This document shows, in pieces, positions 16,691 to 16,980 of a stretch of 64,000 nucleotides of DNA. This DNA is from Eledone cirrhosa (taxonomy: Eukaryota), in contig OZ024743.1 of assembly GCA_964016885.1 (NCBI GenBank), positions 4,650,001-4,714,000 of the forward strand, given 5' to 3'. A program made the position numbers and the translations under genes. Position 1 is the first letter of the stretch, and every line of letters starts with the position of its first letter. The notes under the pieces are model-generated. The model saw only the letters and a program-made list of their open reading frames with translations. It had not been told where the DNA came from and ran no database searches.

Positions 16691-16980
16691 GTTAAAAGAA
16701 TAGAGGTGTAACACACAAGTTATTATATATTGGTAAACGGAATAGAAAATGCCGACAAATTGTTCACAGTTGAAAAATGGTTTCAGAGCAAACAGCACGG
16801 ACACTCTATCTCAAAATTATTTTTGAAAAGCATTTAGAAATGCGCAACCGGTAAAAACTTAAAAACTTAAAACCACAACTGAATACTAACCCATACAATC
16901 ACTAATACTCTTTTATTCCTAATTAAACCATTTTTTCAACTGTGAACAATTTGTCGGCATTTTCTATTCCGTTTACCAAT
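16691..16980. mobile_element. Short asymmetric palindromic copy of the Neptune-type Penelope 3' end in (TA)n
   Basis: Tail TTAAAAGAATAGAGGTGTAACACAC matches 54382-54406. Inverted arms at 16729-16783 and 16925-16980. 16784-16980 is homologous to 57548-57729. Confidence 0.85.

Follow-up and report, generated by a model that had tools for sequence, protein, structure and literature searches.

Our analysis of a 64,000-nucleotide stretch of Eledone cirrhosa DNA (the window) and of related copies elsewhere in the genome points to twin priming as the origin of the head-to-head structure of Penelope-like element (PLE) insertions: two cDNAs would start at two internal sites of the same RNA and then be joined head to head, a reading to which we give a probability of about 0.6. 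That PLE insertions are primed from both sides of the target is, as a more general proposition, highly probable. The sampled copies have two fixed outer ends, one tail per insertion, a longer arm on either side, a haplotype shared by the two arms and coupled 5′ ends. A preliminary description of the window had already proposed two-sided priming, by two independent cDNAs of which one was primed at the RNA tail. Arm lengths, stubs and solo copies uphold the two-sided priming, but neither the start at the tail end nor the independence of the cDNAs survived.

The insert at 16691-16978 was identified from the window sequence and self-BLAST as a head-to-head stub of a Neptune-like PLE inside (TA)n (Table 1). 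Its arms point outward and overlap by 1 nt at the junction. A single homopolymer T distinguishes them, and a rare A>G variant is present in each (16753 in the tailed arm, 16956 in the tailless one). The lopsidedness reported for it is real, with a short tailed side of 53 nt (55 with the shared AT) and a long tailless side of 196 nt; the 5′ end of the tailless arm falls in a family hot spot 187-204 nt from site 2. No target-site duplication was discernible in the (AT)n flanks. Exact matches to the tail (3,782) and to the tailless end (4,396) abound in the 3.0 Gb genome, where the reversed control patterns of both had 0 matches, and the pattern is therefore not a product of chance. We also considered a fixed-length non-autonomous element of 196 nt and rejected it, as the family reads through the 196-nt site into the full element.

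Table 1. Parts of three PLE copies and their flanks, in window coordinates.
Feature	Position	Strand	Remarks
16691 copy: (AT)n target, left flank	16650..16690	.	
16691 copy: one-sided tail	16691..16730	-	40 nt; ends outward at site 1, an internal RNA position with a 3-nt match to target
16691 copy: tailed pLTR arm	16731..16783	-	53 nt, 5′-truncated; 55 nt if the AT common to the target is counted
16691 copy: tailless pLTR arm	16783..16978	+	196 nt; 3′ end is site 2, 7-nt match to target
16691 copy: (AT)n target, right flank	16979..17181	.	
32995 copy: Hydra-like PLE tail	32995..33127	-	133 nt
32995 copy: shorter tailed arm	33128..35492	-	9-nt overlap with the other arm
32995 copy: long tailless arm	35484..40706	+	5′-truncated, frameshifted RT and C-terminal GIY-YIG-type ORF
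54382 copy: tail	54382..54411	-	11-nt deletion at inner end
54382 copy: long tailed arm	54412..56711	-	degraded RT C-terminus and GIY-YIG endonuclease
54382 copy: shorter tailless inverted arm	56712..57729	+	same insertion

The clade motif definitions for Neptune and Hydra were taken from PMC8557442. Two long copies of the 16691 family (L087 and L084) both gave RVT_1 above the cut-off, and GIY-YIG was above it in L087 and just below it in L084. A motif scan of L087 found a C-terminal endonuclease (EN), a CX2-5CxxC linker, two cysteines between GIY and YIG, DKG and GxKF, and the family shows pLTRs, partial tandems, an inverted 5′-truncated copy and a one-sided tail. Under the clade definitions this sequence evidence fits a Neptune-like PLE. 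RT and EN share one frame, and the N-terminal part, an ORF of ~437 aa, lies in an overlapping frame (L068:1281-2650; also L046, L084 and L087). Of 15 aligned rows, 13 have a T TTT TTA heptamer where the frames overlap, a sign of a possible programmed -1 frameshift; downstream of it we found no strong hairpin, and the frameshift literature that we retrieved described viral cases only. A hammerhead in the pLTR, which is typical of canonical C-terminal EN+ PLEs though not strictly defining, was not seen in this family: the CUGANGA core is absent from the last 1,200 nt of two Neptune-like reference copies, and among the matches listed (150 of 211) from an Rfam scan of 7 loci there was one sub-threshold hammerhead match, in L030 on the strand opposite to the arm.

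The copy at 32995 does have its ORFs (35484-36188 and 36055-37659) on the tailless side, as the preliminary description stated, but its identification there as a Naiad element was rejected on account of the C-terminal EN, the DKT and CxCX5C motifs and the 133-nt tail. The endonuclease motif lies downstream of the YRDD RT motif, and the N-terminal GIY-YIG of Naiad was not found in this element. DKT, CNCRNKTNC (the CxCX5C linker) and CRLC are present, CNH occurs near the C-terminus, and an RWR motif (RWK-type) was read in the 5′ part of L215. Judged by these motifs it is a Hydra-like PLE with a (TA)n target, and its tail end has 4,860 exact matches in the genome. A hammerhead half core, CUGAAGA, occurs in its 3′ UTR (window 40508-40514), 199 nt from the tailless end and 7 nt inside the Hydra-like 5′-end hot spot, for which hammerhead cleavage may be a cause; for the Neptune-like family, neither the core search nor the Rfam scan supported hammerhead cleavage as the cause of the hot spot. 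The copy at 54382 belongs to the same family as 16691 and to an older subfamily, with an identity of 81-82% in the 3′ part and 90.5% in the ORF, and its tailed side is, as first described, the long, RT/EN-containing arm. A separate subfamily lacking the AT-rich site 2 was proposed for this copy and dropped: the exact motif of a tail without the 11 nt occurs once in the genome, which identifies it as a deletion.

Other features were recorded in the window. A second family of small lopsided palindromes with a one-sided extension is found in (TA)n (9213-9379, 17302-17475 and 41661-41848), and further palindromic inserts flanked by (TA)n lie at 20596-21249, 31945-32624, 63487-63638 and 17652-17704. 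LINE-type RT ORF remnants, judged by translation alone, are present at 6961-8763 (+, 600 aa) and 30340-31533 (-, 397 aa), the latter interrupted near 31727 by a TA-flanked insert. There are tandem arrays of an 18-bp unit (50148-51886, ~97 copies) and a 31-bp unit (52273-52714, ~14 copies), a dispersed SINE-like repeat family (18120-18482, 21621-22502, 24471-24690, 29021-29151 and 47645-47835) and an assembly gap of 200 N at 10499-10698.

Genome-wide sampling agreed with the earlier statement that either arm can be the longer one. For the Neptune-like family, sampling began with the first 100 tail matches on contig C1, of which 96 were taken; removal of 5 tandem or tail/tail structures and 22 loci without a complete resolved partner left 69 two-armed insertions, some of whose arm extents inside microsatellites were set by hand. 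The tailed arm was longer in 30, the arms were equal (within 10 nt) in 26 and the tailless arm was longer in 13, with extremes of 151 versus ~4,500 nt (L046) and 404 versus ~4,550 nt (L084). Hydra-like copies were drawn from a top-hit set (37 loci, including the window copy, parsed from 40 top hits, with a tailed arm of at least 133 nt required) and from a positional set (55 anchors parsed, a few already sampled or adjacent ones being skipped). Clean two-armed structures with a longer tailless arm, a longer tailed arm or equal arms numbered 9, 8 and 10 in the former and 12, 4 and 16 in the latter, the other parsed loci being solo, tandem, complex or without a clear two-armed structure. The tailless arm was thus longer in 21 Hydra-like insertions and the tailed arm in 12, and the direction bias differs between the two families (p=0.005); within the positional set alone the tailless-longer excess was not significant (12 versus 4, p=0.077).

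The lengths of the two arms are coupled. The 26 equal pairs of the Neptune-like family compare with a mean of 9.7 and a maximum of 18 in 20,000 shuffled pairings, and equal arms ending off the hot spot also exceeded chance (5 versus 0.84 expected, p=0.0015); Hydra-like equal arms were found at 5076/5077 and 4560/4560. The Hydra-like hot spot lies at 203-209 nt, and 489 perfect palindromes centred on the GATC of the Neptune-like hot spot were counted genome-wide. Among short asymmetric pairs, 7 of 11 have their longer arm ending at the hot spot, whereas among long pairs the shorter arm ends there in 1 of 32; a single RNA 5′ end common to both arms would predict this distribution.

Viewed from the other end, the first 100 tailless ends on C1 had, by hand tally, a tailed partner in 62 cases, a tailless partner in 1, an aborted mirror copy in 4 and no partner in 33. 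Partners were therefore tailed in 62 of the 63 complete cases, and tail/tail pairs were rare as well (L104, L199 and, in a tandem, L081). The 33 solo tailless copies, 13 of which end at 188-201 nt and mostly run straight onto AT repeats, indicate that site 2 primes on its own. Five Hydra-like inserts (L311, L312, L336, L337 and L348) consist of a partial tail on one side joined, without overlap, to a tailless arm ending at 111-671 nt (200-209 in 3 of the 5). A single cDNA folding back from the tail, argued against from the outset, cannot account for tail-only stubs that do not overlap their partner or for tailless arms that outrun the tailed ones.

The tail does not mark the RNA's 3′ end. In five tandem copies it runs on into the ORF's start, which places both outer ends of an insertion at internal RNA positions and contradicts the view that one cDNA was primed at the RNA tail. 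The outer ends match the target over 7 and 3 nt in the Neptune-like family and over 2 and 3 nt in the Hydra-like one. Another PLE was reported to start reverse transcription in vitro on both target strands, from two internal sites that flank the tail (PMC11167929). One of four folds, covering the pLTR end, the tail and the ORF start, placed both sites in the loops of a stem-loop (z=-2.9); the same helices appeared in an overlapping fold window (z=-1.3), and the two folds without the ORF start were not above shuffles.

A common template for the two arms is suggested by their sequence variants. In 73 Neptune-like pairs, 208 common variants were shared by both arms and 18 were discordant (92% concordance), versus 81% discordance in shuffled pairs (range 68-91%, 200 shuffles); the tailless-longer pairs alone gave 41 shared and 4 discordant. 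The arms of 30 young Hydra-like insertions differed at 13 of 26,030 sites, against 0.68% between insertions, and those of 58 Hydra-like pairs at 31 of 33,191 sites (10 of them in one locus), against 1.95% between insertions. The A>G variant of the window was found in 26 arms across the genome. At 4 loci, 16691 among them, both arms have it, against an expectation of 0.05; at 6 examined loci with a partner it is on a single arm. Discordance at the 19 most diagnostic sites amounted to 10 of 687 comparisons, against 1.9-5.8 expected from background, and a minority of insertions may have used two templates or two pLTR copies. Gene conversion between the arms could add to the concordance. The two arms of an insertion, sharing haplotype, rare variants and often the 5′ end, likely come from one RNA, and the independence of the two cDNAs is unlikely, as it conflicts with the shared variants and with the coupled lengths. 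The check put forward with it, whether arm mismatches match different subfamilies, was mostly negative: the arms agree at subfamily sites.

The junctions gave a more mixed picture. The spacer was 0 or 1 nt, too tight for a simple hairpin loop, in 29 of 51 near-equal junctions, many with AT, TA or GATC alone at the centre. In L307 and L322 both arms carry the same extra non-reference base at a putative cap position, just outside an initiator-like TCATT. Of 24 ends, 6 have a cap-like G, which does not exceed what base composition predicts (p=0.26); it is absent from 21 neighbouring ends (p=0.023). Two one-off events are mirrored in both arms: a pre-tRNA-Met segment with leader and 3′ trailer at the same junction of L048 (L048:1638-1905), and a deletion with filler in L074 found nowhere else in the assembly. 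Copying of one arm from the other is the simplest account of such mirrored events. The pre-tRNA is in the sense orientation of the element, and beside its best donor (G000:C3:334506530-334506661, the best among 40 scored of 236 candidates) there is no PLE. Twin priming on the same RNA would need, for L048 and L074, a chimeric RNA made by ligation or splinting, or else a source locus that has since been lost; U6/L1 chimeras are a precedent for RNA ligation before retrotransposition (PMC6789731), and a single chimeric RNA could by analogy reconcile L048 with it.

Snap-back-like junctions (L041, with a 5-bp stem and a 3-nt loop, L049, L093 and L170) and templated fillers are common, with repeated snap-back fillers in L168 and L258, and aborted mirror copies were found in L110, L165, L268, L272 and L286. 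Short fold-back synthesis is thus at least part of the joining chemistry, and fold-back copying probably also occurs. A strand-asymmetric mutation spectrum was abandoned as proof of two cDNAs, purine transitions standing at 9 versus 0 and then at 11 versus 4 in a larger sample; an older family has the opposite strand skew. A-to-I editing as the source of the arm differences was unsupported, most differences being G>A. Foreign, non-family DNA of ~300-1,200 nt was seen at or beside the junction in L090, L102 and L031, the piece in L031 being palindromic. In L242, L247, L248, L355 and L343 the second arm begins in the 5′ pLTR and passes through the tail into a full ORF; the template would then have been a tandem or a circle, or a single long RNA with two start regions.

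We propose the following model. A double-strand cut in (TA)n would leave two 3′-OH ends. From each of them a reverse transcript of the same element RNA would be started, at the inner boundary of the tail for one end and at the outer boundary for the other. Both products would be minus-strand cDNAs, anchored to opposite target ends. Each would either stop independently or run off the common 5′ end of the RNA, ~195-206 nt upstream, likely the transcription start in the 5′ pLTR. Joining of the cDNA 3′ ends would likely follow, whether blunt, through 1-7 nt of microhomology or by way of short templated filler, with gap filling as the last step. In the 16691 copy, the cDNA from site 2 would have reached the 5′ end of the RNA, and the one from site 1 would have ended 53 nt beyond the tail. 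For the rule of one tail per insertion, a dimeric enzyme bound to a single RNA stem-loop is a predicted basis. The PLE of Anolis nicks and extends both strands in vitro and is predicted to dimerise, and in that system neither strand preferred one start site (PMC11167929); without a strand preference in vitro, the coupling of the start sites lacks a biochemical explanation. We consider it an even bet that programmed twin priming on a single RNA is the default integration of EN-bearing PLEs, in which a dimeric RT-EN on the RNA stem-loop would assign a start site to each target strand, the tail would be the offset between the sites, and the ~200-nt palindromes of two unrelated clades would result from both cDNAs running off at the transcription start in the 5′ pLTR. 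If so, the inverted pLTR, the one-sided tail and the palindromes at the junctions would all follow from one mechanism.

Among the alternatives, the one closest to this model keeps the two-sided priming and lets a single cDNA, from either site, extend far, fold and copy itself, its plus-strand copy annealing to a short stub on the other target end. The second arm then gains or misses the tail according to which cDNA extended, and the one-tail rule is preserved. Such a fold-back bridge, for which inversions at breaks in yeast offer a documented parallel (PMC11724301), explains the mirrored events of L048 and L074, the equal arms off the hot spot, the fillers of L168 and L258 and the aborted mirrors from tailless arms. 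It sits poorly with the 0-1 nt spacers and with the extra end base common to both arms of L307 and L322, and the non-overlapping tail-only stubs are by definition two joined cDNAs; sense G>A on the shorter arm of young copies (3 cases among few arm differences) is a weak sign that this arm was RNA-templated. We regard the bridge as unlikely to be the general route. A simpler fold, in which a tail-primed cDNA forms a symmetric palindrome and early or late asymmetric central deletions shorten either arm, is improbable. Perfect palindromes are indeed common, one arm ends at the hot spot in many short asymmetric copies (16691 among them), and mouse palindromes acquire small asymmetric central deletions (PMC8701086). 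However, asymmetric pairs show no greater divergence than perfect palindromes (0.78-0.82% versus 0.98%, p=0.27) and are frequent among copies more than 99% identical, some intact arms pass the usual palindrome centre (198 and 203 versus 197; 207 and 209 versus 203-206), and solo tailless copies are frequent. Being blind to direction, the deletions do not predict the family-specific bias, and they would need one-sided losses of more than 4 kb in L046, L084, L249 and L260. Later deletion in the tailed arm, which the preliminary description had raised against its own proposal, is weakened by the same points of divergence, near-identical copies, long intact arms, solo copies and family bias, though a loss at the first replication following insertion may still have occurred.

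The remaining alternatives concern the template. Two cDNAs from separate RNAs of an expressed pool, like the ‘dual priming’ proposed for L1, would account for the small discordance excess at diagnostic sites (three in L086; site 183 in L037, L092 and L117) and for the arms of L363, which differ at 10 of 278 sites, and a single dominant source locus per cell would hide their independence. We find this very improbable given the 92% concordance at common variants (19% in shuffled pairs) and the coupled arm lengths, and it leaves the near-constant use of different start sites by the partners unexplained. Still less credit is due to the published proposals, in which an antisense template is used for self-priming (PMC3846280) and the tail results when the endonuclease resolves the intermediate (PMC8557442). 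Palindromic junctions are frequent and site 2 resembles the (TA)n target, but both tail boundaries match the in vitro starts of reverse transcription on the sense RNA of another PLE (PMC11167929), the pre-tRNA of L048 is in the orientation expected from a copied sense RNA, and the tail-only stubs and solo tailless copies resemble ordinary target-primed products.

Twin priming on one RNA would bear on questions left by earlier work. PMC8557442 lists the origin of the tandem and inverted structures of PLEs among the open questions, and in the first in vitro PLE system the later steps were left without validation (PMC11167929). Thousands of young copies from two clades record the PLE integration reaction in the Eledone cirrhosa genome, and the predictions of one tail per insertion, one template for both arms and a shared 5′ end can be tested in the existing in vitro assay. 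If the model is correct, both target strands would by design serve PLEs as primers, in contrast to LINEs, and PLEs would seed hundreds of perfect palindromes per family. In the mainly open-access literature that we searched, no paper explained the inverted ends of PLEs by twin priming.

The layout itself is a known structure, for which the mechanistic reading given here is supported and testable. An inverted 5′-truncated pLTR and a one-sided tail of 30-40 bp have been published for EN+ PLEs (PMC8557442, PMC3846280, PMC2377424), an internal promoter in the pLTR has been described (PMC2377424), and the canonical elements share with the present ones the head-to-head inverted copy, the one-sided tail, partial tandems, (TA)n targeting, an RT with a C-terminal GIY-YIG and palindromes at the inverted junction; the Hydra-like family differs in its tail of 133 nt. 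The papers on canonical EN+ PLEs, in their accessible text, propose self-priming or endonuclease resolution, whereas here arm-length, haplotype and junction statistics point to two primings on one RNA. Poseidon of Anolis carolinensis in vitro (PMC11167929) likewise has two internal starts of reverse transcription bounding the tail, nicking and extension of both strands, an AT-rich target and a predicted dimer. It showed no site preference by strand, and its accessible text models no inverted product, whereas in our copies the two ends are almost always of different type, with 3-7 nt matches to the target. In the twin priming and the proposed dual priming of L1 (PMC2837659), the second target strand also primes on the RNA, and an inverted head-to-head junction is formed via microhomology or end joining. 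Twin priming in L1 is, however, a minority event that uses the poly(A) tail and a variable internal site and yields non-overlapping fragments with a deletion (PMC2837659). No poly(A) end occurred in the sampled PLE copies, whose two sites are both fixed and internal; in most copies the arms overlap, and the head-to-head type accounts for most insertions. The PLE route thus appears to work like twin priming, yet gives a different product class from that of L1.
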